From the IMG/VR virus record IMGVR_UViG_3300044627_003892: a stretch of 64,000 nucleotides of DNA; one strand, given 5' to 3'. The notes under the pieces are model-generated. The model was not told the origin of the DNA. It did not search any database and saw only the letters and a program-made list of their open reading frames with translations. Position 1 is the stretch's first letter. Each line of letters opens with the position of its first letter. The translations under genes and the position numbers were made by a program. Shown one piece after another: positions 3,089-44,646 of the stretch. The stretch comes from a virus (lineage: Duplodnaviria > Caudoviricetes).

Positions 3089-3883
3089 ATGGTTATTACA
3101 GATAGATTAAAACAAATTATTTTTAAACACCTATATAGAGAGTTAGGTGATTGTGAGATTATTCCTTATAATGGGTCTATATGGTTCATTAATAGGGATA
3201 ATAAACATTGGTACTTTGAACTTGATGAGTCAGGTACTTTATGGTGGAGATACGATTTTTTTAATTCGTTTTTTCAAATATTCTCCATGAGTTCGGATGA
3301 TTTTTGTCCTGTTCTATCTTCTTGGGTGGAAGAGGTCTTAAATCATAAGGTATCCACAACCCAGGATAGCCTGTGTAACGTATGTAAACTGGTGGAAGAG
3401 GTCTTAAATCATAAGGTATCCACAACCTTCATTCCACTTCCAATTACAACGGACAAGGTGGAAGATGTATTAAATCATAAGGTATCCACAACGTGCGATG
3501 TTAAAGTTCGTGTTCCTTGGAAGGTGGAAGATGTATTAAGTCATAATGTTAAGGTGTCTACAACTACCATTCTCAAATACCCCGAGCATTCATTGGTGGA
3601 AAAGGTCTTAAATCATAAGGTATCCACAACCGATTCACTTGATTACGTTGGAAGAATTGAGGTAGAAGAGGTATTAAATCATAGGGTATCTAGAACCTGC
3701 CAAACAAGCGTTTATTGTGATAGGACGGTGGAAGAGGTCTTAAATCATAAGGTATCCACAACGCAGAATTTGAATTATGTCGGCCAAGGACTGGTGGAAG
3801 ATGTATTAAATCATAAGGTATCTACAACGGAATCGTATTTTGGACCCTTCACAAGAGGGGTGGAAGAGGTATTAAATCAATAA
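3089..3883 (+). CDS. array-bearing protein 1: conserved ~80-aa N-terminal domain + VEEVLNHKVSTT repeats with 10-aa variable inserts
   Basis: Open frame across the whole repeat-spacer array; N-terminal domain shared with 10586, 11208 and 11806. Confidence 0.85.
   Translation: MVITDRLKQIIFKHLYRELGDCEIIPYNGSIWFINRDNKHWYFELDESGTLWWRYDFFNSFFQIFSMSSDDFCPVLSSWVEEVLNHKVSTTQDSLCNVCKLVEEVLNHKVSTTFIPLPITTDKVEDVLNHKVSTTCDVKVRVPWKVEDVLSHNVKVSTTTILKYPEHSLVEKVLNHKVSTTDSLDYVGRIEVEEVLNHRVSRTCQTSVYCDRTVEEVLNHKVSTTQNLNYVGQGLVEDVLNHKVSTTESYFGPFTRGVEEVLNQ
3325..3879 (+). CRISPR. CRISPR-like array inside a CDS (8 full + 1 partial repeats, 8 spacers of 30 nt)
   Basis: Repeats start at 3325, 3391, 3457, 3523 (42 bp, +6 insertion), 3595, 3661, 3727, 3793, 3859 (partial); all spacers exactly 30 nt and mutually unrelated; no cas genes seen. 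Confidence 0.7.
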
Positions 3884-4371: not shown

Positions 4372-4701
4372 ATGAAATATCTTATAACAGAATCACAATT
4401 AGATAAAGTAATCTTTAGATATTTGGATATTAAGAACTTTATTCAGATTAAAAGAGGAAACACAATATACTTTGTTAATTCGGAAGATGATAAATATGCC
4501 CAAATCAGATATGATAGAAACGATGGTTGGTGTTATATACGCCATGGATTAATTTACGAAATTTCTTCTTTCTTTTCTTTGGACATATATGATTCTAAGG
4601 AAGTTATCGGTAGATGGGTTGAAAATACTCTACAAATGAGGGTTACTTATACCCGTTTGGTCTTTCACGATGTGAACAATTTGTTTAAAATACCTAACTA
4701 A
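4372..4701 (+). CDS. MKYLITESQL-family protein
   Basis: Paralog of 7873, 6537, 10211 and 49322; ends WVENTL...FKIPN. Confidence 0.8.
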   Translation: MKYLITESQLDKVIFRYLDIKNFIQIKRGNTIYFVNSEDDKYAQIRYDRNDGWCYIRHGLIYEISSFFSLDIYDSKEVIGRWVENTLQMRVTYTRLVFHDVNNLFKIPN

Positions 4702-5410
4702 TAGTAATAATCTTCCACTCCCCATTATAATCTTCCACAAGACATGTAGAGTTCTCACAGAAGTCCCCTGAGTTCATATAGTAATTCTCTATCTTCGGAT
4801 GATGAATATGTCCACATACTGCCACATCATACCCCTTCTGTTTTGTTAGACCTTTTGCGTTATCCTCAAAATCAGATACAAAGTTAATTGCCCCTTTAAC
4901 AGATTGCTTTATTGTGTTTGCTAATGAATGATATGGTAAGTTAAACCACTTTCTTATTTTGTTATATAAAGTATTAAACTTAATCACAATATCATATGAC
5001 CATCCACCGATTACCGCTAACCACCTCGCTTCCATTATAACGAAATCCAATACATCCCCGTGAAAACAAAAATACTTTCTATTATCTATTCCTGTATGTA
5101 TATACTTTCTTACAATCCTGATGTTGTTTAATTTAAATGGAATAAAATCTTTTAGGAAGTCATCGTGGTTTCCTCTTATATAAACCACCTTTGTATTCTT
5201 CTCTGACATCTTCATGAACCTTCTGAATATCTTGGTACAATCCTTTGTCCATTTACCATTACCTTTAAGAGCCCAACCATCTATTATATCACCGTTCAGT
5301 ATTAGTTTTTCCGTTGTGTTATTATCCAAGAAACTTATTATCTTATCTGTCTGTGATTGTCTTGCTCCTAAGTGTAAATCACTCATGATTATCGTTTTCC
5401 AATTATTCAT
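4694..5410 (-). CDS. LpxH/PlcP-like metallophosphoesterase (UDP-2,3-diacylglucosamine hydrolase family)
   Basis: SDLHLG, GDIIDGW, GNHD, HGD, GHIH, NSGDFCE motifs. Confidence 0.85.
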   Translation of the reverse strand: MNNWKTIIMSDLHLGARQSQTDKIISFLDNNTTEKLILNGDIIDGWALKGNGKWTKDCTKIFRRFMKMSEKNTKVVYIRGNHDDFLKDFIPFKLNNIRIVRKYIHTGIDNRKYFCFHGDVLDFVIMEARWLAVIGGWSYDIVIKFNTLYNKIRKWFNLPYHSLANTIKQSVKGAINFVSDFEDNAKGLTKQKGYDVAVCGHIHHPKIENYYMNSGDFCENSTCLVEDYNGEWKIITIS

Positions 5411-6141
5411 TCCCAGTATCCTTTATCATCCTCAAAATGATTTTTATTGTTCCTGTTGAAGAATGAACTAACCATAAGTTTTAACATATACCACACTCCT
5501 TTCTGTTTGAACCTTCTTGGACTTGTGAATACCGTTGTATTCATGATATAAAACTTGCTTGGTTTAACTTGTTTGGAGAATAGATAATCCTCGGCAACTC
5601 TTGCGTTTTCATCAAACCCACCGATTGTATCATATACTTCTTTCTTAACCATCATGAACCCACCAAGACAAAATGGTGTGATTGGTTTGAATACCTTTTG
5701 TATTGTGTCAAACAATCTGAATATACTATTATACTCACCTGTCGTTGACCTTACCTTACATGTAATCAAATCTGTATTATGTAATAAGAACTCCCATATA
5801 CAATTGTTTAATATGTTGAAATCCAATAAGAATATGTCAGCGTCCAAAAATAGAACATAAGGTGTTTCCACATTCTCTGCTCCCTTATTTCTTGCAACAG
5901 ACGGAAGTCCTCCTGAAATAATCTGTAGATTAAAATAATCTGTTCTCCTATTTTCCAAAGAATAGGATGTATAATCATCATCCGATGAATCACAAACAAT
6001 AACTCTAACATCTTGTATTCCCTTTTGAAAGTTTAATAAGGACAACGTTTGTTCTATTATCTTGCCCTCGTTCTTACAAGGGATTACTATGGTTAAAAAC
6101 TTTGATAAATCCATAATAATAACTATTAAAAACAACCTCAA
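5407..6141 (-). CDS. glycosyltransferase family 2
   Basis: IVIPCKNE, ARNKG, FLDAD, AEDY motifs; start may be the internal MDLSK. Confidence 0.85.
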   Translation of the reverse strand: MRLFLIVIIMDLSKFLTIVIPCKNEGKIIEQTLSLLNFQKGIQDVRVIVCDSSDDDYTSYSLENRRTDYFNLQIISGGLPSVARNKGAENVETPYVLFLDADIFLLDFNILNNCIWEFLLHNTDLITCKVRSTTGEYNSIFRLFDTIQKVFKPITPFCLGGFMMVKKEVYDTIGGFDENARVAEDYLFSKQVKPSKFYIMNTTVFTSPRRFKQKGVWYMLKLMVSSFFNRNNKNHFEDDKGYWE

Positions 6142-6222
6142 ACCATATTATCATATTCTTATTAAATTATTAACCCAATATGTATTGTTCAATTTTATGT
6201 GTATCTTTGTATTTATTATAAT

Positions 6223-6540
6223 ATGAAGATTGAGCATAAGGTTAAAGCAATTGTAAAACTAATTAATACATTATACTCTCCTGACGAGATTAAAGTTAGA
6301 AAGAGTGAGTTTGATGATGAGATGTTAATTGATGTTTACGTTTCTCATATTGATGACTCATATATAACCAACCCTTACCATTATAATCTTAATAAACTAA
6401 AGGAATTAAATTTAGAACGTGAGATTAGAAGGGCGATAAAGGATTTTTTGAGTATTAAAACAAGCGGACTTAATCCATACACAGGTTTCGCCCCGTATGC
6501 TGTTCACGGCATAACAATAGATGTAAGATTAATATTATGA
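6223..6540 (+). CDS. hypothetical phage protein
   Basis: ATG MKIEH after a tatctttg motif. Confidence 0.6.
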   Translation: MKIEHKVKAIVKLINTLYSPDEIKVRKSEFDDEMLIDVYVSHIDDSYITNPYHYNLNKLKELNLEREIRRAIKDFLSIKTSGLNPYTGFAPYAVHGITIDVRLIL

Positions 6541-6890
6541 AATACCTTATAACAGAATCAAAATTAGAGAAAGTAATCTTTAAGTATCTTGATATTCAGG
6601 ACTTTGTGATATATGACAACAAGAAGAGATTCAGCAATTATATATATTTCTTAAACAGTGAGTCAGATAGGGAATCACAGATTAGTGTTTATACTAACAA
6701 CGCCTTTGGTGAAGTTAGGAATTGGATATTTGTAAATCGTGATTTGACTGATAAATTATCTACCTTATTCCCCATTGGTAAATCGGATTGTTTGGATATA
6801 ATCAAAGAATGGGTTAATAATACTTTGGGTATTAGTGATAGTACGATTTGGGATGGTCCATATGATTACAGATTAGCGGTTACAGATTAA
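6537..6890 (+). CDS. MKYLITESQL-family protein
   Basis: MKYLITESKLEKVIFKYLD ... WVNNTL. Confidence 0.8.
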   Translation: MKYLITESKLEKVIFKYLDIQDFVIYDNKKRFSNYIYFLNSESDRESQISVYTNNAFGEVRNWIFVNRDLTDKLSTLFPIGKSDCLDIIKEWVNNTLGISDSTIWDGPYDYRLAVTD

Positions 6891-6903
6891 TAGTTAACGA
6901 AGA

Positions 6904-7182
6904 ATGAAATACTTAATTACAGAATCACAGTTAGAATCATTTTTACTTAGAAGGTTTACAATGGATGAATTGGAATCACTTAGGGATGATTATAACTACA
7001 TTATGGATGAAGAAGATTTTGAAGATTCCGCCGACAGAGATGATTACGCTTATGAATTAATTGAAAAGTTCATTGATAGACATAGAGGTGAAGAGTTTTT
7101 TCAATATGATGATGATACTGAATTCTATGATAAACGTTCCAAATATATTGGAGCATTACTCAAATTCTTAAACTCTAATTAA
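6904..7182 (+). CDS. MKYLITESQL-leader acidic protein
   Basis: Leader motif; unrelated acidic body. Confidence 0.7.
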   Translation: MKYLITESQLESFLLRRFTMDELESLRDDYNYIMDEEDFEDSADRDDYAYELIEKFIDRHRGEEFFQYDDDTEFYDKRSKYIGALLKFLNSN

Positions 7183-7185
7183 TCT

Positions 7186-7515
7186 TTAGAAACCTTTTCT
7201 TTCATTATACATCCGTGTAATTCTTTTTCTATAATGATTTTCTAACCCTTGGTGTATATCATCATACCAAAATTCATCTTCAGGTAATGTGCTAACAAAT
7301 CTCCAATGTACCCCATCCATCATAAAGGTTATTGTTGTGTAGACTAACTCATCTAAAAAATGTGAACTTAAAACCTTTCTGTCTTTTGTAAGACGATAAG
7401 CACCTTCAAAAGATTCAAGAAACTCATTTTCCATTTCATCATTAGAAAGTCTTCTTTTAATTCTCGCTGATAGTTCTTCCCTCAGTATTCTTTTTATAGA
7501 TTCTTTTAAGTTCAT
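7186..7515 (-). CDS. MNLQE-leader family protein
   Basis: MNLKESIKRILREE. Confidence 0.75.
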   Translation of the reverse strand: MNLKESIKRILREELSARIKRRLSNDEMENEFLESFEGAYRLTKDRKVLSSHFLDELVYTTITFMMDGVHWRFVSTLPEDEFWYDDIHQGLENHYRKRITRMYNERKGF

Positions 7516-7548
7516 ATTATTATAAATATGATTATATTTATATTCTAT

Positions 7549-7869
7549 ATGAAATATCTTATCACCGAATCACAATTAGATAAAGCCAAATCGGTAATAA
7601 ATAATTTAATGATATCTGAGTTAAATAATATATTAGATTATGATAGAACATCAGATAGTGATTTCATTAATATATATAGCCAGGAAAGAGGCCCTGATTT
7701 TTTTATTTTAATGGAGTTTGACCATAGTGATGGTAGATTATTTATTGATGAATCTTTTTTAGATAAGTTTTCATCCATGTATCCACTTGATAAAGAACAA
7801 TCAGGTAAATTCATTTCTGATTGGTTTAGTAAAGTATTTGATGTTGATGTTATGTTTTTTGAATATTAA
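7549..7869 (+). CDS. MKYLITESQL-leader protein
   Basis: Start reassigned to MKYLITESQL at 7549. Confidence 0.75.
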   Translation: MKYLITESQLDKAKSVINNLMISELNNILDYDRTSDSDFINIYSQERGPDFFILMEFDHSDGRLFIDESFLDKFSSMYPLDKEQSGKFISDWFSKVFDVDVMFFEY

Positions 7870-7872
7870 TAT

Positions 7873-8202
7873 ATGAAATACCTTATCACCGAATCACAAT
7901 TAGACAGAGTAATCTTTAGATATTTGGATATTAAGAACTTTATTCAGATTAAAAAGGGTGCAACTATATTTTTAGTTAATTTAGAAGATGATGAATACGC
8001 TGAGATTAGATATGATAAAATTAGTGGATGGTGTTACATTGTTAATAGTTTAATTAATGAAGTGGCCTCTTTCTTTTCTTTGGGTATCTCCGATTCCATG
8101 GAACTTATCCGTAGATGGGTTGAAAATACCCTCAAAGTAATAGTTGTACAAGTCCGTGGGGCTAAACCCGCACCGAATGTATGGATAAGAGTAAATAACT
8201 AA
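7873..8202 (+). CDS. MKYLITESQL-family protein
   Basis: Close paralog of 4372..4701. Confidence 0.8.
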   Translation: MKYLITESQLDRVIFRYLDIKNFIQIKKGATIFLVNLEDDEYAEIRYDKISGWCYIVNSLINEVASFFSLGISDSMELIRRWVENTLKVIVVQVRGAKPAPNVWIRVNN

Positions 8203-8210
8203 TATAATAT

Positions 8211-8621
8211 ATGAAATACATAATCACTGAGAATCAATATAGCAAAACTCTTAAACCCTTATTAGAGAAATTTGGTATGCGTACTCTGTGTAAAATGACT
8301 GATAAGGAACCTGAAGATATTATTGATGAGATTGGTCTTAAAGGAACAAGAGAAGATATTATCTTTCTAACAAAAACTATACTTGAAAATGATATCTCAA
8401 CCGTCTTGATGTATTGTAGTTATAATATCATACCCACTCGTGACTCTATGAACTTGGTCGTCTACATACCTAAGCCAGCTCCTGCAAATGTGGGAAGGTA
8501 TATCTATGAGGAAGGTACAAGAAGTATGTATAGAGATGTTATTTCTAAGGCTTTATATCAATTGGGTGGTGGTCTAATTAGAGTTCACAATATTGAGGTT
8601 TATAATACAGGAAATTGTTAA
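8211..8621 (+). CDS. MKYIITE-leader protein
   Basis: Leader motif, 136-aa ORF. Confidence 0.7.
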   Translation: MKYIITENQYSKTLKPLLEKFGMRTLCKMTDKEPEDIIDEIGLKGTREDIIFLTKTILENDISTVLMYCSYNIIPTRDSMNLVVYIPKPAPANVGRYIYEEGTRSMYRDVISKALYQLGGGLIRVHNIEVYNTGNC

Positions 8622-8637
8622 CTTATATTTATATATA

Positions 8638-8994
8638 ATGAAATATCTTATCACCGAATCAAAATTAAAAACATTCATTAAAAACAAGTTTAATATTGAC
8701 CTGACAGGTCGTGTGGAATTTGAACCTGATTCATATGAATTATTGGTTTATTTTGATAACTATCTTACTCAAGATAGTTTAGCAAGAAGACGGAGAATGG
8801 ATAACTATGGTCCGATATATTTTATAGAATTAGATAATGGAAATAAAATATTTTATCAAATGAATTATAGTTCAGACAGTCCTTTAATTCTTAGTAACGA
8901 AGGTGCTCAATATACTGAATCACAATTTATGAATTTACTTGGTATCTCAGGTCTTGGAATATCAATTGAACAATTTCTTGATTTATACGTATAA
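8638..8994 (+). CDS. MKYLITE-leader protein
   Basis: Start reassigned to MKYLITESKL at 8638, after TATTTATA. Confidence 0.7.
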   Translation: MKYLITESKLKTFIKNKFNIDLTGRVEFEPDSYELLVYFDNYLTQDSLARRRRMDNYGPIYFIELDNGNKIFYQMNYSSDSPLILSNEGAQYTESQFMNLLGISGLGISIEQFLDLYV

Positions 8995-9009
8995 GATACT
9001 TAATCACTA

Positions 9010-9810
9010 TTAGATTAACGTACCAACATATCCTAATGCATCCCAATGACTCTTTCCTTTTGGTGTCTTAGTTGCACCCGCTACCACATCTAATCCTCTT
9101 GCTTTCGATGGACCTGTAATAACATGTGATGATGGAACTCCTTTACCTACCGCAGACTGAACTGAACTTGATGTATTCTTAGATATAGCGTAAGGTTCTA
9201 CTATGAATAACTTACTTTTGTTTTTAATAAGAGAAGCAACTTTAGATGAGTATGAACATCCTGCACTGAATAATACAACTGTCGCGTTAGGATTTTGTAT
9301 GATTGCGGTTTCAATCTTATCAAATTGATTATATCTATATCCTATAACATTTTTCTTTGAACTATTACTTTTAAGTAAGTTTATTTGTTCACCTATGTTT
9401 AAGTCTCCCTTTCTATAATCTAATCCACCCATTAATATAACATCAACAATTGGAGCTTTAGAATCTTTTTTATCATCAGACTCCGTTGATTCGTATATGA
9501 CATCAACACATTCTTTATTATAAAACCTTTCTAAGTCATCCCTCATGTAGTTTTCTACATACGTAACACCATCTTTATATTTTAACCACTCAGACAACGG
9601 ACCATCGGTATCAGAACCATCTGTAATCATGTCCATAATTTCATGTTGTATACCACGCATGAATGCTTCAAAGTTTTCAAAATCACATGGATAATTAGTT
9701 ACATTGTTATCCCATACAAACGATTTAAATCTATTCAATCTTCTTTTGAACTTTGGTGAAAAATCTGTTTCTTCCCTTAATACTTTTTTTATATTCTCTT
9801 GTAGGTTCAT
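9010..9810 (-). CDS. MNLQE-leader protein with possible alpha/beta-hydrolase-like C-terminal domain
   Basis: Leader motif; C-terminal VILMGGLDY...VLFSAGC...H. Confidence 0.6.
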   Translation of the reverse strand: MNLQENIKKVLREETDFSPKFKRRLNRFKSFVWDNNVTNYPCDFENFEAFMRGIQHEIMDMITDGSDTDGPLSEWLKYKDGVTYVENYMRDDLERFYNKECVDVIYESTESDDKKDSKAPIVDVILMGGLDYRKGDLNIGEQINLLKSNSSKKNVIGYRYNQFDKIETAIIQNPNATVVLFSAGCSYSSKVASLIKNKSKLFIVEPYAISKNTSSSVQSAVGKGVPSSHVITGPSKARGLDVVAGATKTPKGKSHWDALGYVGTLI

Positions 9811-9842
9811 AATATTATAAATATAATTATATTTATTATTAC

Positions 9843-10214
9843 ATGAAGTATATTATTACCGAGTCACAACATAAATTAATATCCGAACTTGAAAGAACTT
9901 GGAGAGATTCTGAATATACGGAACAATACAATAGACTAAAACCTAAAATGATTCGTTATTTTGAAAATTTGGTTGATTCACATTCTGAAAATGATGTAAG
10001 ACTTAACTTATTTGATAGTGACCAAAACGCCGTAATGGTTTATAATAAACCAAGTGGTGATTTATACTATAATAGGAACTTTGACGATATATATGGTACA
10101 GCCTTTCCTCATCCCATTTGGTTAGTTCACGGCAAATTCATTATGTCAGATGTATTTAATGAGTTCTTTCCTGACTACGAAGTTAAATCAGTTAGAAGTA
10201 TAACATTATCATGA
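9843..10214 (+). CDS. MKYIITESQ-leader protein
   Basis: Leader motif. Confidence 0.7.
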   Translation: MKYIITESQHKLISELERTWRDSEYTEQYNRLKPKMIRYFENLVDSHSENDVRLNLFDSDQNAVMVYNKPSGDLYYNRNFDDIYGTAFPHPIWLVHGKFIMSDVFNEFFPDYEVKSVRSITLS

Positions 10215-10549
10215 AATATTTAATCACAGAATCACAATTAGATAAAGCAATACTCAAGTTTCTTGATAGTCAGGATTTTAATATAACTAAAATTGGTGCC
10301 AGTACATATATTTCATACCCTGAAGATGATTTTGCTCAGATTAAATATGGTGGTAATCATTCCAATAATGAATTGTGTTTTATCTATAAAGGTTTAATTG
10401 AAGCAATTTCTTCCTTCTTTTCTCTTAACAGTTATCAATCCACCAGAATTGTTGGGCAATGGGTTAAGAAAAAACTGAATTTGGAGGGTCAAATGTCCAA
10501 CAAGATAATGAGCTCCCAATGGTCGTTAAAATTACCAACTGAAGATTAA
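10211..10549 (+). CDS. MKYLITESQL-family protein
   Basis: Paralog of 4372 (AQIKY...ISSFFSL...IVGQWV). Confidence 0.8.
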   Translation: MKYLITESQLDKAILKFLDSQDFNITKIGASTYISYPEDDFAQIKYGGNHSNNELCFIYKGLIEAISSFFSLNSYQSTRIVGQWVKKKLNLEGQMSNKIMSSQWSLKLPTED

Positions 10550-10585: not shown

Positions 10586-11224
10586 ATGGTTACAGATAAG
10601 CTAAAACAACTCATATTCAAACACCTATACAAAGAGTTAGGTAATGTGGAGATAATCCCGTATAAAGACTCTGTATGGTTCATTGATAGGGAAAATTGTT
10701 ATTGGTATTTTCAGTTGTCTAAAGATGGATGTTTATTTTGGAGATACTCATTCTTCCCATCGTTTTTCAGTATTTTCTCTTTGGAGCAAAGTGAGTTTGA
10801 ACCAATAATATCTTCTTGGGTGGAAGAGGTATTAAATCATAAGGTATCCACGACAGGTAATAAGCTCGGTTACTTCTCGCGAAAGGTGGAAGAGGTATTA
10901 AATCATAAGGTATCCACAACAAAAATGTTTGTAATTGACGAATTTCCTCTGGTGGAAGAGGTATTAAATCATAAGGTATCCACAACTGAAGAGAAAACTA
11001 CTGTAACAGCAAAGTGGGTGGAAGAGGTCTTAAATCATAAGGTATCCGAAACTTTTGAAGTAGACGCCGCCCAAAAAAGAAAGGTAAAAAAAGTATTAGA
11101 TAGTAGGGTATCAACAACTAAAAATAATTCCTTATTTTCCGAAAGGTCAGTGGAAGAAGTATTAAATAGTGCTTGGGTGAAAAAGGCATTAAACAATAAA
11201 AAAGAAAATGAAAGTAACGGATAG
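10586..11224 (+). CDS. array-bearing protein 2
   Basis: ATG 5 nt after TATCTTTG; same N-terminal domain plus VEEVLNHKVSTT repeats. Confidence 0.85.
   Translation: MVTDKLKQLIFKHLYKELGNVEIIPYKDSVWFIDRENCYWYFQLSKDGCLFWRYSFFPSFFSIFSLEQSEFEPIISSWVEEVLNHKVSTTGNKLGYFSRKVEEVLNHKVSTTKMFVIDEFPLVEEVLNHKVSTTEEKTTVTAKWVEEVLNHKVSETFEVDAAQKRKVKKVLDSRVSTTKNNSLFSERSVEEVLNSAWVKKALNNKKENESNG
10819..11170 (+). CRISPR. CRISPR-like in-frame array (5 repeats + partial, 5 spacers of 30 nt)
   Basis: Repeats at 10819, 10885, 10951, 11017, 11083 (degenerate), 11149 (partial); 66-nt period. Confidence 0.65.
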
Positions 11225-11819
11225 ATTAAGACAACTCATATTCAAACAACTATACAAAGAATTAGGTAATGTGGAAATTATCCCTACCCAATACAGTTAT
11301 TGGTTTATTAATAGAGAAGAAAAATACTGGTATTTCCAACTAACTGAAAGTGGATGTTTATATTGGAGATATGATTATTTCAAATCTTTCTTTTCTTTTT
11401 TCTCTTTGGAGTCCAAAGATTTTGAACCAATTATTTCATCTTGGGTGGAAGAGGTATTGAATAGTAAAGTATCCACAACAATTGTGCAGATGCATCATAA
11501 GAAGGATTCGGTGGAAGAGGTATTGAATAGTAAGGTATCCACAACTCAGCAATTCAGTTTCACTTCGAATGATATGATGGAAGAGGTATTGAATAGTAAG
11601 GTATCCACAACTGCAGGAAAGGCAGGAACTGTAACCATTGCGGTGGAACAGGTATTGAATCGTAAGGTATCCAAAACAGTCCGTGACGTAGGTGAAGGAA
11701 ACTTTTTGGTGGAAGATATATTGAATCGTAAGGTATCCAAAACGGAAGAATTCATCTCAAGAAGAGCGGAATCGGTATATGAGGCATTAAACAACAAAAA
11801 AGAAAATGAAAGTAACTGA
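11208..11819 (+). CDS. array-bearing protein 3 (VEEVLNSKVSTT variant)
   Basis: Paralog overlapping the previous stop; repeat variant LNSK/LNRK. Confidence 0.85.
   Translation: MKVTDRLRQLIFKQLYKELGNVEIIPTQYSYWFINREEKYWYFQLTESGCLYWRYDYFKSFFSFFSLESKDFEPIISSWVEEVLNSKVSTTIVQMHHKKDSVEEVLNSKVSTTQQFSFTSNDMMEEVLNSKVSTTAGKAGTVTIAVEQVLNRKVSKTVRDVGEGNFLVEDILNRKVSKTEEFISRRAESVYEALNNKKENESN
11444..11795 (+). CRISPR. CRISPR-like in-frame array (5 repeats + partial, 5 spacers of 30 nt)
   Basis: Repeats at 11444, 11510, 11576, 11642, 11708, 11774 (partial); consensus GGTGGAAGAGGTATTGAATAGTAAGGTATCCACAAC. Confidence 0.65.
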
Positions 11820-12540
11820 TAGATTAAAACAGGTTGTATTCAAACAACTATACAAAGAATTAGGTAATGTGGAGATAATCCCATATAAAGATTCTATATG
11901 GTTAATTGACCGAGAAAAGGAGCATTGGTATTTTGAATTTGAAAAGAGTGGTCGTTTGTGGTGGAGATATTATTTCTTTAATAGTTTTTTTACTATTTTC
12001 TCATTGGAACCCAAAGATTTTGAACCAATACTCTCTTCTTGGGTGGAAGAGGTATTAAATCATAAGGTGCCCACAACTGAATTGTGTGCGGAGAAAAAGT
12101 ATGATGAGGTGGAAGAGGTATTAAATCATAAGGTATCTACAACTGTTTACATGGGCATGAAGGCAAGTGTGAAGATGGAAGAGGTATTAAATCATAAGGT
12201 ATCCACAACGCAAAACGATATCGGTAAAGAAGGTTTCTTGGTGGAAGATGTATTAAATCATAAGGTATCTACAACACAAACGACGAATGCGGAACAAGTG
12301 GTTTTGGTGGAAAAGGCATTAAATCATAAGGTGTCTACAATATCATTCAATACACCGCCGTTTCCGAATATGGTGGAGAAGGTATTAAATCATAAGGTGT
12401 CTAAAACCTATTGTAGACCCACTATTGTTCCCAGTGAGGTGAAAGAAGTCCTAAATCATAAGGTAACTACAACACACACATCACGTACATGTAATTCACC
12501 AGTGGTGGAAGAGGTATTAAATGAAAACCCCACTGAGTAG
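11806..12540 (+). CDS. array-bearing protein 4
   Basis: Paralog with 7 variable inserts. Confidence 0.85.
   Translation: MKVTDRLKQVVFKQLYKELGNVEIIPYKDSIWLIDREKEHWYFEFEKSGRLWWRYYFFNSFFTIFSLEPKDFEPILSSWVEEVLNHKVPTTELCAEKKYDEVEEVLNHKVSTTVYMGMKASVKMEEVLNHKVSTTQNDIGKEGFLVEDVLNHKVSTTQTTNAEQVVLVEKALNHKVSTISFNTPPFPNMVEKVLNHKVSKTYCRPTIVPSEVKEVLNHKVTTTHTSRTCNSPVVEEVLNENPTE
12042..12522 (+). CRISPR. CRISPR-like in-frame array (7 repeats + partial, 7 spacers of 30 nt)
   Basis: Repeats at 12042, 12108, 12174, 12240, 12306, 12372, 12438, 12504 (partial). Confidence 0.65.
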
Positions 12541-12593: not shown

Positions 12594-13214
12594 TTAAGTA
12601 TTTTTATCTCTAAGTCTTTCATCTGTTTCTTCTTGGACTTCAGGTATGAATCTATCCAAGATTATTTCATACACTTCTGGTAAGTAAAACGTATTATACC
12701 AATCAAATAAATTATCAACACTATTAAAAAAATAATTACCATTATGTGTATTATGTGTAAGTTCCACAAAATAATCACCATCACCACTTGTATCGTATAT
12801 TCCTACATTAGGTTTCTTTGAGTCATCTTCTAATCCATACCAATCAAGTTCAACGGGTGTATAATCAGCAGTTGCAAAAAAAGGTGTTGCCATTACCCAT
12901 ATTTTTTCTAATACATTAGGTGGATAGTGTCCCGATTTAAACTGCCTTGTCCAATAAAACACATCATCACTACTTATTTCAATTTCAAATCCTTTATATT
13001 TTGCAGGTAAATTACCATTTTCAATATTTTCAACCAATAGTTCTTTAGCAACAAATTCATCAATTTTTAAATCAGACATTTTGTATAAATAGGTAAGACT
13101 CACACCCATCATTTTTGCCGTCTTATAAACACCATGTTTACCAACAGTATCCATAATGAATTTACTCTTTTTATCTTCCCTTAATACTCTTCTTATGTGT
13201 TCCTGTAGATTCAT
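12594..13214 (-). CDS. MNLQE-leader family protein
   Basis: MNLQEHIRRVLRED. Confidence 0.75.
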   Translation of the reverse strand: MNLQEHIRRVLREDKKSKFIMDTVGKHGVYKTAKMMGVSLTYLYKMSDLKIDEFVAKELLVENIENGNLPAKYKGFEIEISSDDVFYWTRQFKSGHYPPNVLEKIWVMATPFFATADYTPVELDWYGLEDDSKKPNVGIYDTSGDGDYFVELTHNTHNGNYFFNSVDNLFDWYNTFYLPEVYEIILDRFIPEVQEETDERLRDKNT

Positions 13215-13215
13215 A

Positions 13216-13644
13216 TTAATTACTTTTACCTGTTCCTTTATTGATTAATTTTATACAGTTAGATGATATATTCTCAAATGTCACAATATGATGTTCATAA
13301 TCTCCACCTTCGAAATGTGCATCTCTATACCAAGTAACCCCAGCACATTCTGTATCTATTAACCATGTGTCATCATCATAACCATCACTAAACATATCTT
13401 CTTTATCCAATGAATCTGTGGCAAAAATTGCTGGTTGACATTCCGTATACCATTCACCATATAAATCCATTGCGTGATTCTCATAACATTCCCCTACCGA
13501 TGTCAACAACCCATTAAGTCGTATATTCTTTCTCCATACCGAATTTGATTTATGGACCACAAACTTATTAGGTGTATATTCATCTCCTGATGGAGAATAT
13601 AGTTCTTCCCTTAATATTCGTCTTATTGTTTCTTGTAGGTTCAT
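13216..13644 (-). CDS. MNLQE-leader protein, possible ADP-ribosyltransferase-like fold
   Basis: Leader motif; VVHKS...NIRLNGL...IFAT...IVTFENI pattern reminiscent of Tpt1/ART-like domains (weak). Confidence 0.5.
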   Translation of the reverse strand: MNLQETIRRILREELYSPSGDEYTPNKFVVHKSNSVWRKNIRLNGLLTSVGECYENHAMDLYGEWYTECQPAIFATDSLDKEDMFSDGYDDDTWLIDTECAGVTWYRDAHFEGGDYEHHIVTFENISSNCIKLINKGTGKSN

Positions 13645-39479: not shown

Positions 39480-40808
39480 TTATTTTATTTTTATTTTCAT
39501 TTTGGTTCCACCTTCAATTTTTTCACAACTCAATTTAAAACCATGTTCTTCTAATATCGCAACACATATATTCAACCCAAGACCCTTCTCTTCACCAGTG
39601 ACATCAGCCTTCTTTGAATACTTTGTTAAATGTTTTTCAAGTTGTTTTTGTGAGAATCCTTTACCATTGTCCTCAACTATTAAATATTCTTCTTCGTTAT
39701 ATATCTTAACTTTTTTAACTTCACTATCGTTATATGATAAACCATTCTTAATTAAGTTCTCAACCGCATTACAGAATAAAGTCTCATTCACTTCCATATC
39801 ACCCAAGTCAGATATCTCAACCTGTGAACTATATGAATTTGGTGAAATGTATTTCCAAATCAAATCTTTAGCGTTAACCACAGATTTATTTAACACAACA
39901 TTTTGTTTAACAAGATTGGTAAACTCATAAACACTCTTATAAACTTTTTGAGTGTGGTTTAATCCTTCTTTAACCATCTTAAGTGCTCCTTCAATCTTCA
40001 ATCTTTGGATGTCCTCAACGGTTAATCTTTTTTCTAATGATGTAATACCTCTTGGCATGTATGTATTAATACCTGAGTGCATGTCATGTCTGATGATTCT
40101 TGCTGCGTGTTCCAAGTAACTATTCTTCTTAGCAATATCACTAATCTGTTGTTCAATCTCAACATCCTGTACTTGTATTCTCTTTCTTTGTAAGACAACC
40201 GCCAATATTAAAACAAACAGTATAACAACACCTAAAGCACCATAAAGGTATTTCTTCAAGGTCTCTCTTTGTTTTTCCAAATCAGTTTTTTCAGTCATCA
40301 AATTTCCATTCTCATCCATTAAGTCATCAGTCTCCAAAGTCAAACCGATGATATTCTTTTCTTTACTTAACGAAGTAATGGTATTTTCTTTTGATTTTAT
40401 AAGTTCTTCATTTCTTATAGCTTGAGCTAATAATAAATCTCGTTCTGCGGTAAGTTTATTAATCTTGTTATCAATTTGAACTAATACATTTTTTAAATCT
40501 TCTTTAGGTAAATCAGTATACGATTTTGGTAAGTCAGTTAAAAACTGTAAGTCTTCAGCAATACTTGCTAAATCACTTTCAGACAATTTAGTTTCATCAA
40601 CTGGTTCAGGTTCAGGTGGAATCCAAGTTGTAACGATTTCTTGTATATCCATAGCCGCAACTTGACTAGTATCACCATCAATCTGTAAATTATCGTTAGA
40701 CCATGAAACGTCAATTCCGTCAACTAATGTATCGTTGTAATTCAAATTTTGTGAGTGTAAACCTGTCGATACGAGTGTTACTAAAATCAATAATATTATC
40801 TTTTTCAT
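39480..40808 (-). CDS. membrane sensor histidine kinase
   Basis: Signal peptide, coiled coil, TM, IRHDMHSG (H box), NLIKNG (N box), DNGKG, GLGLNIC. Confidence 0.9.
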   Translation of the reverse strand: MKKIILLILVTLVSTGLHSQNLNYNDTLVDGIDVSWSNDNLQIDGDTSQVAAMDIQEIVTTWIPPEPEPVDETKLSESDLASIAEDLQFLTDLPKSYTDLPKEDLKNVLVQIDNKINKLTAERDLLLAQAIRNEELIKSKENTITSLSKEKNIIGLTLETDDLMDENGNLMTEKTDLEKQRETLKKYLYGALGVVILFVLILAVVLQRKRIQVQDVEIEQQISDIAKKNSYLEHAARIIRHDMHSGINTYMPRGITSLEKRLTVEDIQRLKIEGALKMVKEGLNHTQKVYKSVYEFTNLVKQNVVLNKSVVNAKDLIWKYISPNSYSSQVEISDLGDMEVNETLFCNAVENLIKNGLSYNDSEVKKVKIYNEEEYLIVEDNGKGFSQKQLEKHLTKYSKKADVTGEEKGLGLNICVAILEEHGFKLSCEKIEGGTKMKIKIK

Positions 40809-41425
40809 TACTTTTTTAATTCTTCTTTTAATAAACTTTTATTTTTCCAAATCCATGATTCATATCTTCGAGTTATACCATTAAAATCAAGAAACTTTAA
40901 ATTGTGAAAATAATTTGTTGCTGGTGCGAACTGCATATCAAACTCTTCTCTGAATTTTTTATATTCTTCATACTCACTTTTAGTCATTTTTTCAAAAACA
41001 AGAATTTTTCCGTATTCATGAGTGTAAAGATTGTAATCATCTAAATTCACAAAATATAACTTGTTGTATGGGGGTATAGTGTATATGAACGCTCCATTTG
41101 TAGCGTATTCCCAAAGAGTCATGTTCAATTCATCAGCCCATTTATATGTCGTATCTGCTACATATTTGATACTATCTAACATGTTAGGTATATTTTCAAC
41201 AATGTTATTTAAACTATCTATCTTATTATTTAAGGATGTGATTTTTTTACCTTGTTCTCTAATAATCCTTCTTTGTGTTTCAATTGCTTTATTAATATCA
41301 ACAGATTGTTTAACAGATAGGATAACAACAGAGTCACCTCTATAGATTGTTTGAATTGGGTATTTAATTTGACTAAACCCAAACAAAGAAATTGTTAAGA
41401 AAATAAAAGTTAGTAATGTTTTCAT
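40808..41425 (-). CDS. secreted coiled-coil hypothetical protein
   Basis: Signal peptide; lies between the two kinases. Confidence 0.65.
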   Translation of the reverse strand: MKTLLTFIFLTISLFGFSQIKYPIQTIYRGDSVVILSVKQSVDINKAIETQRRIIREQGKKITSLNNKIDSLNNIVENIPNMLDSIKYVADTTYKWADELNMTLWEYATNGAFIYTIPPYNKLYFVNLDDYNLYTHEYGKILVFEKMTKSEYEEYKKFREEFDMQFAPATNYFHNLKFLDFNGITRRYESWIWKNKSLLKEELKK

Positions 41426-42693
41426 TTAAATTTGATTTTCATTTTAGTTCCTGTTTCATTTTTTTCACAGGTTATTTTAAATCCGTGTTCTTCTAAAATG
41501 GCAACACAGATATTCAATCCTAAACCAGTACCCGATTCTTTTTGACCTTCTTTTCTGGTGTATGGTTTTGATAAATAATTAAAATCTTCTTGGGTAATAC
41601 CTCTACCATTATCCTGTATGAATATCATATCACCTTCAGAGTATATCTTAACAAACTTTGTTTCAGAGTCGTTATACTTTAAACCATTCCTAATTAGATT
41701 ATCAACTGCAGTACAGAACAATGGTTCATTCAATTCAATCGTTGGTAGGTTATCATCCAACATAACCTGACTAATGTATGCCGTCGAGGACAAATAGTCC
41801 TTGAGAATGTCCTTGATGTTAAATTCAGTTTTATTAAGAACAACATCTTTCTTTACCAGATTGGTAAATTCATAAACACCTTTATAAACTTTCTGTGAAT
41901 GCTTAAGTCCTTCCTTAATCATTTTAAGTGGTGCCTCAATTTTAAGTTTAACAATATCTTCTTGAGTTAATCTTCTCTCCAACGAGTTAACACCTCTTGG
42001 TATATAGGTATTAATACCTGAATGCATATCGTGTCTCAATATCTTAGCAGCATGTTCCAAGTATGTATTCTTTCTTTCAATCTCTTTCTTCTGTTCGTAA
42101 GAATTCGTGATATCAATAGCGATTTTCATAACACGATAAATCTTACCATCAGTATCAAAAATAGGATTGTAGGTCGCTTGTAAATAAACTAAAGACCCAT
42201 CTTTTTTAACTCTAACAATTTCCCCTGAAAATAATACACCACTTCTTAATTTTTCCCAAAAAAGACAATAATCCTCACTTTTCTCATAATCATCTTCCAC
42301 AAAAATTCTGTGATGTTTTCCAACTATTTCATCCTGTGATGGATATCCCATAGTTTTTATAAACAAATCATTGGCAAAAATAATATTACCTTCTAAATCA
42401 AATTCAATTACCGCATTAGATTTATTGATAGCGGTCATTCTATTAGTAAGTTCATTTTCTATTTTAATTAACTTATCTACAGATTCTTTAGATATTGAAT
42501 TTTTATTAGATTTGATAAAGTCTTTAATCATTAATATTGATATAGGAATTAACAAAATAAAACAAATGTATTCAATACCACGTGTAACTCTTGTTGATTC
42601 CTGTATTTCAAGTAAAACCGATGTTTTAACCAAAAAGAATACAGACATTATTAAAATAGAACAAAGTAAATAGATTTTTGTTTTTTTAGTCAT
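41422..42693 (-). CDS. PAS/PAC sensor histidine kinase
   Basis: 2 TMs, PAS (AVIEFDLEGNIIFANDLF...GKHHRIF...ATYNPI), LRHDMHSG, NLIRNG, DNGRG, GLGLNIC. Confidence 0.92.
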   Translation of the reverse strand: MTKKTKIYLLCSILIMSVFFLVKTSVLLEIQESTRVTRGIEYICFILLIPISILMIKDFIKSNKNSISKESVDKLIKIENELTNRMTAINKSNAVIEFDLEGNIIFANDLFIKTMGYPSQDEIVGKHHRIFVEDDYEKSEDYCLFWEKLRSGVLFSGEIVRVKKDGSLVYLQATYNPIFDTDGKIYRVMKIAIDITNSYEQKKEIERKNTYLEHAAKILRHDMHSGINTYIPRGVNSLERRLTQEDIVKLKIEAPLKMIKEGLKHSQKVYKGVYEFTNLVKKDVVLNKTEFNIKDILKDYLSSTAYISQVMLDDNLPTIELNEPLFCTAVDNLIRNGLKYNDSETKFVKIYSEGDMIFIQDNGRGITQEDFNYLSKPYTRKEGQKESGTGLGLNICVAILEEHGFKITCEKNETGTKMKIKFK

Positions 42694-42765
42694 ATTTCAT
42701 AAATACCTTTATTAAATAAAAAAACCCCTCAAATTAGAGGGGTTTAAACATTAGTTGGTTGTGAA

Positions 42766-44646
42766 CTACTTACCAACTTCTTCAAAATCTACATCAGATA
42801 CTTCAGAATCGTTATTCTCCATTTCGTTCATGTTGTTCATTTCAGAAGTTTGACTATAAAGATTTACAGTAATCTCTTGGAACACCTTGTTGATGTTATC
42901 AATACCTTCCTTAATCTTCTCAATATCTTTTGACGAATGAGCCGACTTTAATTCTTCAAGAGCTACAGTTACCTCTGACTTTTGTTCTTCCGTAATCTTG
43001 TCTTCAATATCTTTCAAAGACTTTTCCACTTGGAAGATTGTTGTGTCAGCTTGGTTGATAACCTCAGCATCTTCTTTTGCTTTCTTATCTGATTCAGCGT
43101 TCATCTCCGCTTCCTTCTTCATCGTTTCAATCTCTTCTTTCGAAAGTCCTGATGATGATTCAATACGGATATTTTGTTGTTTGTTAGTTCCTTTGTCAAG
43201 AGCCGATACATTGATAATACCATTAGCATCAATATCAAACGTTACCTCAACCTGTGGAATACCTCTTTGTGCCGGTGGGATACCATCCAGGTGGAAACGT
43301 CCAATACTTCGGTTGTCTTTCGCCATTGCTCTCTCACCTTGTAATACATGGATTTCAACGGTTGGTTGGTTATCAACTGCAGTTGAGAATACCTGTGACT
43401 TCTTGGTCGGGATAGTAGTGTTCGCTTCAATTAACTTTGTGAATACTCCACCCATAGTTTCAATACCAAGTGATAGTGGTGTTACATCTAATAACAATAC
43501 ATCTTTAACATCACCTGCTAATACACCTGCCTGAATTGCTGCTCCAAGAGCAACAACCTCATCAGGGTTAACACCCTTTGATGGTTCCTTACCGAAGAAC
43601 TTCTTAACTGCTTCCTGAATTGCCGGAATACGTGTTGTTCCTCCAACCAAAATGATTTCGTCAATATCACTTGTCTTAATTCCTGCGTTCTTCAATGCCG
43701 ACTTACAAGGAGCAATAGTTCTTTCAACCAAACTATCAACAAGTTGTTCAAACTTAGCCTTAGTTAAAGTTCTTACCAAGTGTTTCGGTATACCATCAAC
43801 AGGCATAATATATGGTAAGTTAATCTCCGTAGATGGTGAAGAAGATAATTCAATCTTCGCCTTCTCAGCTCCTTCACGAAGACGTTGAAGAGCCATAGCA
43901 TCTTTGGTCAAGTCAATTCCGTTTTCATCTTTGAACTCTGTAACCAACCAGTCAATGATTGCTTGGTCAAAGTCATCACCACCAAGGTGTGTATCACCAT
44001 CAGTAGACAATACTTCAAAAACACCATCACCAAGTTCCAAGACAGATACGTCATGTGTTCCACCACCACAGTCAAACACAACAATCTTCATATCTTTAGA
44101 TTGTTTGTCCAATCCGTAAGCAAGTGCCGCCGCAGTTGGTTCATTAACAATTCTCATTACTTTCAAACCTGCAATCTCTCCAGCTTCTTTCGTAGCTTGA
44201 CGTTGAGCATCGTTGAAGTATGCTGGTACCGTGATAACTGCCTCAGTTACCTCTGAACCCAAATAGTCCTCAGCAGTTTGTTTCATCTTTTGGAGAACCA
44301 TTGCCGAAATTTCTTGTGGTGAATATTTTCTATCCTCAATCTCAACACGAGGAGTTCCACCATCACCCTTAACTACTTTATAAGGAACACGTTTAACCTC
44401 ACCCTTACTTTCATCAAAACTTGTTCCCATGAAACGTTTGATAGATGAGATAGTCTTATCAGGATTAGTAACCGCCTGACGTTTAGCAGGGTCACCAACC
44501 TTTCTTTCACCACCATTTAAGAAACCCACAATTGAAGGGGTGGTTCTTTTTCCTTCACTGTTTGTAATTACAACTGGTTCGTTACCTTCCATTACGGCAA
44601 CACATGAGTTAGTTGTTCCAAGGTCAATACCTATAATTTTTCCCAT
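42766..44646 (-). CDS. dnaK: molecular chaperone DnaK
   Basis: [50 protein letters not shown]. Confidence 0.98.

Follow-up and report, generated by a model that had tools for sequence, protein, structure and literature searches.

Why should a row of CRISPR-like spacers in a phage genome read through as protein, with a base composition different from that of its surroundings? The question is raised by positions 3361-3858 of a stretch of 64,000 nt from a virus of the Caudoviricetes (IMG/VR record IMGVR_UViG_3300044627_003892; the whole stretch is called the window below). From the sequence, the initial annotation had claimed that none of the 25 spacers seen interrupts the reading frame, that they are GC-richer than the DNA around them, and that fragments acquired from a foreign, possibly host, source appear to be filtered by selection for translation. 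As set out below, the spacers at positions 3361-3858 very probably belong to a CRISPR-type array that makes up the 3′ two thirds of a gene for a phage protein.

With a GC content of 32.9%, the window is AT-rich, and its genes are phage-like, including those for a T4-type RNA ligase, thymidylate synthase, Hsp70, and PAS histidine kinases; in IMG/VR, the relatives of the window are viral contigs with sizes up to 241 kb. Four paralogous genes on the + strand (A-D) share one layout, an N-terminal domain followed directly by a repeat-spacer array. Gene A (3089..3883, +), an open frame of 264 aa, comprises the coding region of the N-terminal domain (3089..3324, 29.7% GC) and array A, whose repeat 1 lies at 3325..3360, whose other repeats start at 3391, 3457, 3523, 3595, 3661, 3727, and 3793, and whose last repeat (3859-3879) is truncated. 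The repeat at 3523 has 42 nt and carries a 6-nt in-frame insert; altogether, array A has 9 repeats, between which lie 8 spacers with a length of exactly 30 nt. The same arrangement is found in gene B (10586..11224, +; repeats from 10819, 5 spacers), gene C (11208..11819, +; repeats from 11444, 5 spacers), and gene D (11806..12540, +; repeats from 12042, 7 spacers). In the series B, C, D, the beginning of the next gene overlaps the stop of the previous one, with the start codon of gene C overlapping the end of gene B. On the 3′ side of array A, the segment 3884-4339 is convergent, so that no same-strand gene follows downstream.

The window therefore contains 8 + 5 + 5 + 7 = 25 spacers in 4 arrays, each 30 nt long. 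The repeat has 36 nt (consensus GGTGGAAGAGGTATTAAATCATAAGGTATCCACAAC) and encodes VEEVLNHKVSTT in frame, and each 66-nt unit of 22 codons yields VEEVLNHKVSTT plus ten variable residues. Since the repeat begins at codon position 3, its boundaries fall within codons. Near-identical direct repeats within the range of 23-50 nt, separated by unique spacers of constant length, agree with the generic description of a CRISPR array. No ORF of the window exceeds 626 aa, and the 17 ORFs of at least 238 aa contain no cas family according to Pfam.

The spacers of array A contain 101 G+C in 240 nt (42.1%), which confirms the initial count. The 25 window spacers together have 40.0% GC, compared with 32.9% in the window as a whole, 32.7% in its 86 other ORFs, and 28-33% in the N-terminal domains of genes A-D; when sets of 25 in-frame 30-mers were sampled 20,000 times from the coding DNA of the window, the rate at which they attained the spacer value was 5e-5. 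The spacers are thus GC-richer than their surroundings, as had been claimed, and do not share the composition of genome-wide coding DNA, but the value of about 30% that had been estimated by eye for the flanks was too low, as these have 32-35% GC. In-frame stop codons are absent from all 25 spacers, against 9, 26, 13, 8, and 8 in the other five frames (the out-of-frame TAG at 3367-3369 is one example). Shuffled spacers are stop-free with a probability of 0.48 each, which gives 1e-8 for 25 spacers, and 30-mers derived from host genes (see below) with a probability of 0.657, which gives 2.7e-5 for the 25 window spacers and 1.7e-15 for the 81 distinct spacers of the family described next. The earlier rough estimate that such a set would occur once in a million was about right.

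Relatives of these arrays were detected by searching for pairs of repeat ends at a distance of 66 nt, which returned 16 viral loci. Fifteen of them hold 29 further arrays of the gene-embedded family, and each of these 29 is located in an open frame running beyond the last repeat. Including the window, all 33 arrays are inside open frames, not in a non-coding locus transcribed into crRNAs, and array A is open in all eight contigs carrying it. The family comprises 212 spacers with the window included, all of exactly 30 nt and with a GC content of 41.4%, which represent 104 distinct sequences in 81 clusters. None of these 81 distinct spacers has an in-frame stop, and in each of the other frames 21-50 of the 81 do. 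The sixteenth locus (L008) has a non-coding array of similar general type, with 29-nt spacers and stops in all frames. For comparison, bacterial type VI-B arrays with a related repeat were taken from Flavobacterium columnare, F. covae, and F. sp. J27 (the J27 array adjoins cas13b, NF038190). Unlike in the phage family, their spacers vary from 29 to 31 nt (72% are 30-mers and 28% have 29 or 31 nt), the repeat itself has stops, and 41% of the spacers bear a stop in the equivalent frame (59% are stop-free). Related arrays with in-frame stops are absent from the gene-embedded family; the proposed filter by selection for translation is borne out by the 33 open arrays, the uniform length of 212 spacers, the lack of stops in 81 distinct ones, and the synonymous bias described below.

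With regard to the origin of the spacers, the core of spacer A1 was scanned against metagenomes, which led to bacterial contigs of 41-42% GC. By stepwise DNA searches through class and order samples, an uncultured genus of freshwater Bacteroidota was reached, which is represented by 27 species genomes of 1.6-2.8 Mb that are 91-97% identical to the A1-matching rplM contig over 2.7 kb. In a sample of 401 genomes from the order of F. columnare, the identity of the rplM region is just 64-76%. The class sample included one unpublished genome (G883), on which none of the conclusions depend. Close proteins in NCBI are named "Bacteroidota bacterium" and once "Flavobacteriales", the protein atlas gives the phylum only, and the L13 protein of the A1-matching contig is present in 295 blocks of lake assemblies.

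The genus was searched with the window arrays and with four array sets of sister phages, and 22 distinct protospacers were found in its chromosomes. Five of them are identical at 30/30 positions, five at 29, eight at 28, one at 27, two at 26, and one at 25, so that 19 of the 22 reach at least 27/30; by our own calculation, chance would provide about 0.001 matches at this level and about 0.4 matches at 25/30 over all spacers. All 22 are located in long ORFs; 21 protospacer ORFs were scanned, and Pfam families confirmed 20 of them as well as rplM. The flanks of the protospacers consist of gene sequence, not of repeats. The host loci have 42.0% GC, close to the spacers of the family; the spacers are GC-richer than the 33%-GC phage because they were copied from a 42%-GC chromosome. 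Hence, the 30-bp spacers are copies of chromosomal DNA from an uncultured 42%-GC genus of freshwater Bacteroidota, which is presumably the host of the phage.

In the window itself, 11 of the 25 spacers match this genus, ten of them at 27/30 or better, in line with the foreign source that had been proposed. Spacer A1 (3361..3390, +), carried by this phage only, corresponds to the antisense strand of the host rplM gene (ribosomal protein L13), with 30/30 identities in L053, L060, L068, and L076 and 29/30 on L054. Spacer A2 (3427..3456, +) is identical at 30/30 positions to a Zn-dependent phospholipase-C-like gene in L123, in sense orientation and shifted frame. Spacer A4 (3565..3594, +) derives from a glycoside hydrolase family 92 gene in L138, likewise sense and shifted in frame (27/30 for the window copy and 28/30 for the sister-phage copy). 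A weak match was observed for spacer A7 (3763..3792, +), which is antisense at 25/30 in L115 and could be due to chance. In array B, spacer B1 (10855-10884, +) is antisense to a SIMPL/DUF541 gene (28/30, via the copy on contig L010). In array C, spacer C2 (11546-11575, +) matches a DUF5916 gene, sense and in a shifted frame, and spacer C3 (11612-11641, +) matches secA in its native frame, both at 29/30. Four sources were found for array D: a gene without a Pfam family for spacer D1 (12078-12107, +; native frame, 27/30), glutamate dehydrogenase for D2 (12144-12173, +; native frame, 29/30), htpG for D3 (12210-12239, +; antisense, 27-28/30), and a peptidase M28 gene for D7 (12474-12503, +; antisense, 27-28/30).

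For the other 14 spacers of the window, the 27 genomes of the genus contain no matching source. In array A, these are spacer A3 (3493..3522, +), common to eight contigs; A5 (3631..3660, +); A6 (3697..3726, +), found in this phage only; and A8 (3829..3858, +), which belongs to the oldest unit of the array and is common to seven contigs.

Several other sources were tried and rejected. Flavobacterium yielded only chance-level short matches in the 4 genomes with the nearest repeats, and chance-level matches only in the 401 further genomes, in which two candidates were scored per genome. A search of 50,697 phage records and of 211 kb of the phage group's own DNA outside the arrays produced no match, and the cores of spacers A1 and C1 have no source match in IMG/VR.

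These matches bear on a simpler reading, according to which the locus encodes an ordinary tandem-repeat protein whose linkers have diverged by point mutation, its likeness to CRISPR being coincidental. The units of 22 codons and the location in a real gene would suit such a protein. However, unrelated host genes supply identical or almost identical counterparts of the spacers on both strands, the repeat boundaries lie inside codons, and sister phages differ by whole units; the 30/30 protospacers refute the reading, and its probability is close to nil.

The protospacers also reveal how the fragments were taken. Eleven are antisense and occur in all three phases; of the 11 in sense orientation, six have kept their native frame (6 of the 22) and five are shifted. 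A filter model was built in which every 30-mer of the host genes, on both strands, was put through the stop test of the phage frame. The pass rate is 96% for the native frame and 52-68% for the others (65.7% overall), and the model predicts that 24% of the survivors are in the native frame, compared with 27% observed. The full frame distribution does not deviate from the filter model (chi-square P = 0.16, n = 22), and with the same 22 protospacers it is also indistinguishable from a uniform one (P = 0.13). The equal strands and the presence of all frames indicate that fragments were not selected for their original frame or strand, and the check for reuse of native frame or strand that had been recommended at the outset found none beyond the prediction of the filter. 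These observations fit random capture of host DNA followed by loss of frame-breaking inserts.

Base composition departs somewhat from the filter model. In the spacers, third-position GC is 37% (43% in the model), third-position T is 0.36 (0.30), and first-position G is 0.28 (0.235); the departures have z values of 2.6 to 3.7 and lean to the codon usage of the phage. Either further selection is acting, or codon usage drifts towards that of the phage, or there is a second source. Where host and phage copies differ, the mismatches favour AT (16 vs. 10), though not significantly.

Apart from the reading frame, the encoded residues appear to be constrained as well. Spacer variants between sister phages comprise 19 synonymous and 14 non-synonymous changes, with 27% synonymous expected (P = 2e-4), and the bias persists at 14:13, against the same 27% expected, when native-frame spacers are left out. 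The synonymous excess suggests that the encoded peptides are under selection. For spacers in their native frame, it may be added that host polymorphism could imitate a synonymous bias.

It could be argued that translation through the array is needed while the peptide itself is irrelevant, stops being harmful by way of mRNA decay, Rho-dependent termination, or the uncoupling of genes B, C, and D. The start-on-stop overlap of these three genes, the predicted disorder of the tail, and the use of arbitrary host fragments in any frame as inserts are all compatible with this. Nevertheless, array A, which has no same-strand gene downstream, is still open in eight of eight contigs, and the synonymous bias of 14:13 is seen even without native-frame spacers; we consider the proposal unlikely. 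Selection on the peptides is the reading preferred here.

The arrays differ among phages in the manner expected of CRISPR adaptation. Between orthologous arrays, entire units of 66 nt (repeat plus spacer) have been gained or lost, mostly at the end adjoining the N-terminal domain. The sharing of units rises along the array, from a mean of 2.8 contigs for the first unit to 5.5 for the last (rho = 0.34, P = 5e-7), and the distal repeats are decayed. The whole-unit differences, the sharing gradient, and the decayed distal repeats together point to polarised CRISPR adaptation in which the first repeat is duplicated, with growth at one end and degenerate repeats at the old end. Array A (95% of sampled words) was found in 14 lake-water metagenomes from 2018 to 2023, and this lack of change indicates slow turnover and rare acquisition.

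What machinery might add these units? In F. columnare, a VI-B array that lacks cas1 receives its spacers in trans from the type II-C Cas1-Cas2; they are inserted in inverse orientation, and the cell's own chromosome is often their source (PMC8092290). In the host genus, cas1 was found in only 1 of the 27 genomes (G1240), whose type II-C locus consists of cas9-cas1-cas2 and an array in which a repeat of 47 nt alternates with spacers of 30 nt. Read as its reverse complement, this repeat begins with GGTG and ends with CACAAC, as does the phage repeat. In the flanks of the phage protospacers, Y-Y occurs at -3/-2 in 12 of 19 cases, against a background of 26% (uncorrected P = 7e-4, a weak motif), and both traceable protospacers of the G1240 II-C array (n = 2, independent) have R-R at +2/+3, the reverse complement of Y-Y. 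The PAM of F. columnare (TTTANNNNN upstream) is absent from the phage protospacer flanks, and the type II-C spacers of G1240 do not match this phage group. Based on the 30-nt size, the repeat ends, the flank motif, and the precedent of F. columnare, loading of the phage arrays by a type II-C module of the host is regarded as the likeliest mechanism, with roughly even chances of being correct.

Alternatively, the inserter may be a phage enzyme unrelated to Cas1, or the units may arise by recombination between repeats and not by the host's CRISPR adaptation. Apart from the single host genome with Cas1, cas1 was not found in five related phage contigs (45-82% complete), and the repeat also serves as the last helix of a domain common to many small phage paralogues, both of which speak for this alternative. 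The exact insert size of 30 bp, which is the spacer size of type II-C in the host genus, the polarised additions, the repeat ends and flank motif that mirror type II-C, and the experimental demonstration that type II-C can load a VI-B array in trans (PMC8092290) argue against it, and such an inserter seems doubtful. Loading by the type II-C module is accordingly the explanation carried forward.

A further question is whether the array functions as RNA, i.e., whether crRNAs made from it load a Cas13b-type effector of the host or phage against host transcripts, the open frame being incidental. The geometry is that of type VI-B arrays: the repeat has 36 nt, the spacers have about 30 nt, and the repeat is identical at 24 of 36 positions to the VI-B repeats of F. 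columnare and F. sp. J27, with similar ends (GGTG...CACAAC, as against GTTG...CAAC in type VI-B). Moreover, crRNAs would have the same sense as the coding strand, one spacer in two is antisense to a host mRNA, and cas-less arrays with host-matching spacers are known in huge phages (PMC7162821). On the other hand, the phage repeat no longer has the inner stem of the VI-B hairpin. Its folding energy is -5.4 kcal/mol (z -1.3), compared with -10 to -11 kcal/mol (z -2.5 to -3) for the VI-B repeats; it folds no better than shuffled sequences and does not form the two-stem hairpin bound by Cas13b. The repeat RNA has no match in Rfam. Furthermore, cas13b was found neither in the 27 host-genus genomes, which are MAGs and maybe incomplete, nor in five related phage contigs, while the control search recovered it in 3 of 3 Flavobacterium genomes. 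Guides directed against transcripts would also leave unexplained the even strand ratio of 11:11, the strict 30-nt length, the 81 stop-free spacers, and the synonymous excess, and an untranslated array of such a type looks like the non-coding one at L008. A function as guide RNA is therefore judged very improbable. Contigs from RNA libraries span parts of related arrays, from which transcription, ends, and strand are not readable; one of them bears a sister-phage array, which is at most a hint of transcription.

If the array is instead read as protein, the product consists of two parts. The N-terminal domain of about 80 residues is conserved across the four paralogues and 26 homologues. In the AF2 model of gene A, residues 1-90 have a pLDDT of 66-81 and are predicted to fold into a helix, four strands, and two helices, the last of which includes the WVEEVL of repeat 1; residues 92-264 have a pLDDT of 26-37, and the array-encoded tail past repeat 1 is predicted to be disordered. 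A fold search with the N-terminal domain yielded no solved structure above Z 4.7, the array proteins have no match in Pfam or PHROGs, and the only viral matches, the homologues in UniProt, are uncharacterised proteins of uncultured phages.

Taken together, a scheme can be proposed in which a Cas1-Cas2-type integration would add new units and duplicate the first repeat, the integrase being supplied in trans, most likely by a type II-C module of the host that makes 30-nt spacers. Units of 29 or 31 nt, as well as the approximately one third of 30-mers with a stop, would then be purged by selection, presumably because the array must be translated. The putative product would be a folded domain of 90 residues followed by a disordered tail, in which VEEVLNHKVSTT plus 10 variable residues is repeated n times. 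It is a tentative idea, with chances a little short of even, that CRISPR integration serves here as a protein-writing device by which host DNA is inserted in frame into four paralogous genes.

Short arrays without cas genes (median of six repeats), some of them with host-like repeats and with spacers that match host chromosomes, have been described in huge phages (PMC7162821). The arrays reported here resemble them in being phage-borne and short (5-9 repeats), in having no cas1, cas2, or effector nearby, in a repeat that resembles a bacterial one, and in spacers that match the chromosome of the presumed host. Unlike those compact arrays, which were described as non-coding RNA loci, they form the 3′ part of an ORF, and their spacers have a length of 3n, are free of stops, and bear signs of purifying selection on the encoded residues. 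With the VI-B arrays of Flavobacterium, they share the 36-nt repeat and 30-nt spacers, the 24/36 identity including the last 12-14 nt, transcription from the variable end inward, many spacers from the own chromosome without choice of strand (PMC8092290), and perhaps a flank motif that is the reverse complement of a type II-C motif. They differ from these in the lost hairpin and in the lack of cas13b among the genomes of the host genus and the phage relatives searched.

Two other phage systems are also comparable in part. Virus-borne mini-arrays and solitary repeats, known as RNA anti-CRISPRs, act as RNA decoys and need neither spacers nor an open frame. The arrays described here are likewise repeat mimics on a virus without cas genes; however, they accumulate spacers and are predicted to be translated. 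Diversity-generating retroelements (DGRs) of phages mutate a template copy by means of a reverse transcriptase. Both are phage devices that vary a defined segment of a phage protein, but here whole foreign pieces of 30 bp are inserted, and no reverse transcriptase is involved. In a literature search, no published description of a CRISPR array used as a frame-selected coding sequence was found. The novel part is that the array appears to be a coding sequence under selection for both frame and residues.

CRISPR arrays are understood as non-coding stores of guide RNA, whereas in this family 33 of 33 copies appear to be selected for reading as protein. If this is true, a phage genome can be a target of spacer integration during infection, with host DNA as the material taken up, and a translation filter determines which spacers survive; arbitrary inserts of 10 residues could become fixed in a phage protein and be conserved thereafter. 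The arrays offer a natural test bed for how the adaptation modules of type II-C recognise foreign repeats, and the protospacer matches directly assign a host to an abundant group of uncultured jumbo phages from lakes. Should the more tentative idea of protein writing hold, CRISPR adaptation would here diversify a protein instead of storing guide RNAs, and each phage lineage would possess its own disordered peptide modules, kept by selection.

Array genes B, C and D of the phage, each of which joins an N-terminal domain to a translated repeat-spacer array, overlap start-on-stop at window 11208-11224 (B/C) and 11806-11819 (C/D), which suggests that the three are translationally coupled. Numerous small paralogues lie around them, at window 4372-10549 and 12594-13644, and fall into two sets. 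Proteins of the first set start with MKYLITESQ and end in a WVENTL-like motif that is homologous to the WVEEVL encoded by the array repeat, and four of them share 17-23% identity with the array proteins in alignment; members of the second set are encoded on the minus strand and start with MNLQE. Elsewhere, at window 39480-44646, two PAS/HATPase histidine-kinase-like phage genes adjoin a full-length Hsp70 (DnaK) gene.

Array A also occurs in a shorter version. Window points 3522 and 3793 are joined in one contig of RNA library X19, and this contig bears the three-spacer array of another viral contig, L005, which shows that a sister phage with a shorter array A exists.

Beyond the gene-embedded arrays, a non-coding VI-B-like array is present on the minus strand of a further viral contig (L008:1-1443), with the repeat GTTGTATACACCTTTCAAATAAGAGGTATCCACAAC and 29-nt spacers. 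All of its frames are interrupted by stops; possibly it is related to the gene-embedded arrays but is not translated. A Sphingobacterium MAG (L017:513-810) has degenerate units that recur every 66 nt and end in GGTATCCACAAC; they may be either the remains of an array or repeats within a coding sequence. In F. covae AL-02-36, the cas13b gene adjoining the VI-B array (G004:C1:3184982-3188564) is disrupted by numerous stop codons.

On the host side, genomes G1424 and G1434 contain two or three copies of the protospacer of spacer D2 (window 12144-12173), which lies in a glutamate dehydrogenase gene. Some copies sit at contig ends, and the cause may be a duplication of the gene or a split in the assembly. 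Another genome of the host genus, G1240, has 10 spacers in its type II-C locus (L230:6402-12122); of these, h3 matched 12 IMG/VR contigs and h9 matched one. By these matches, the host genus targets that phage group, which is distinct from the phage of the window.
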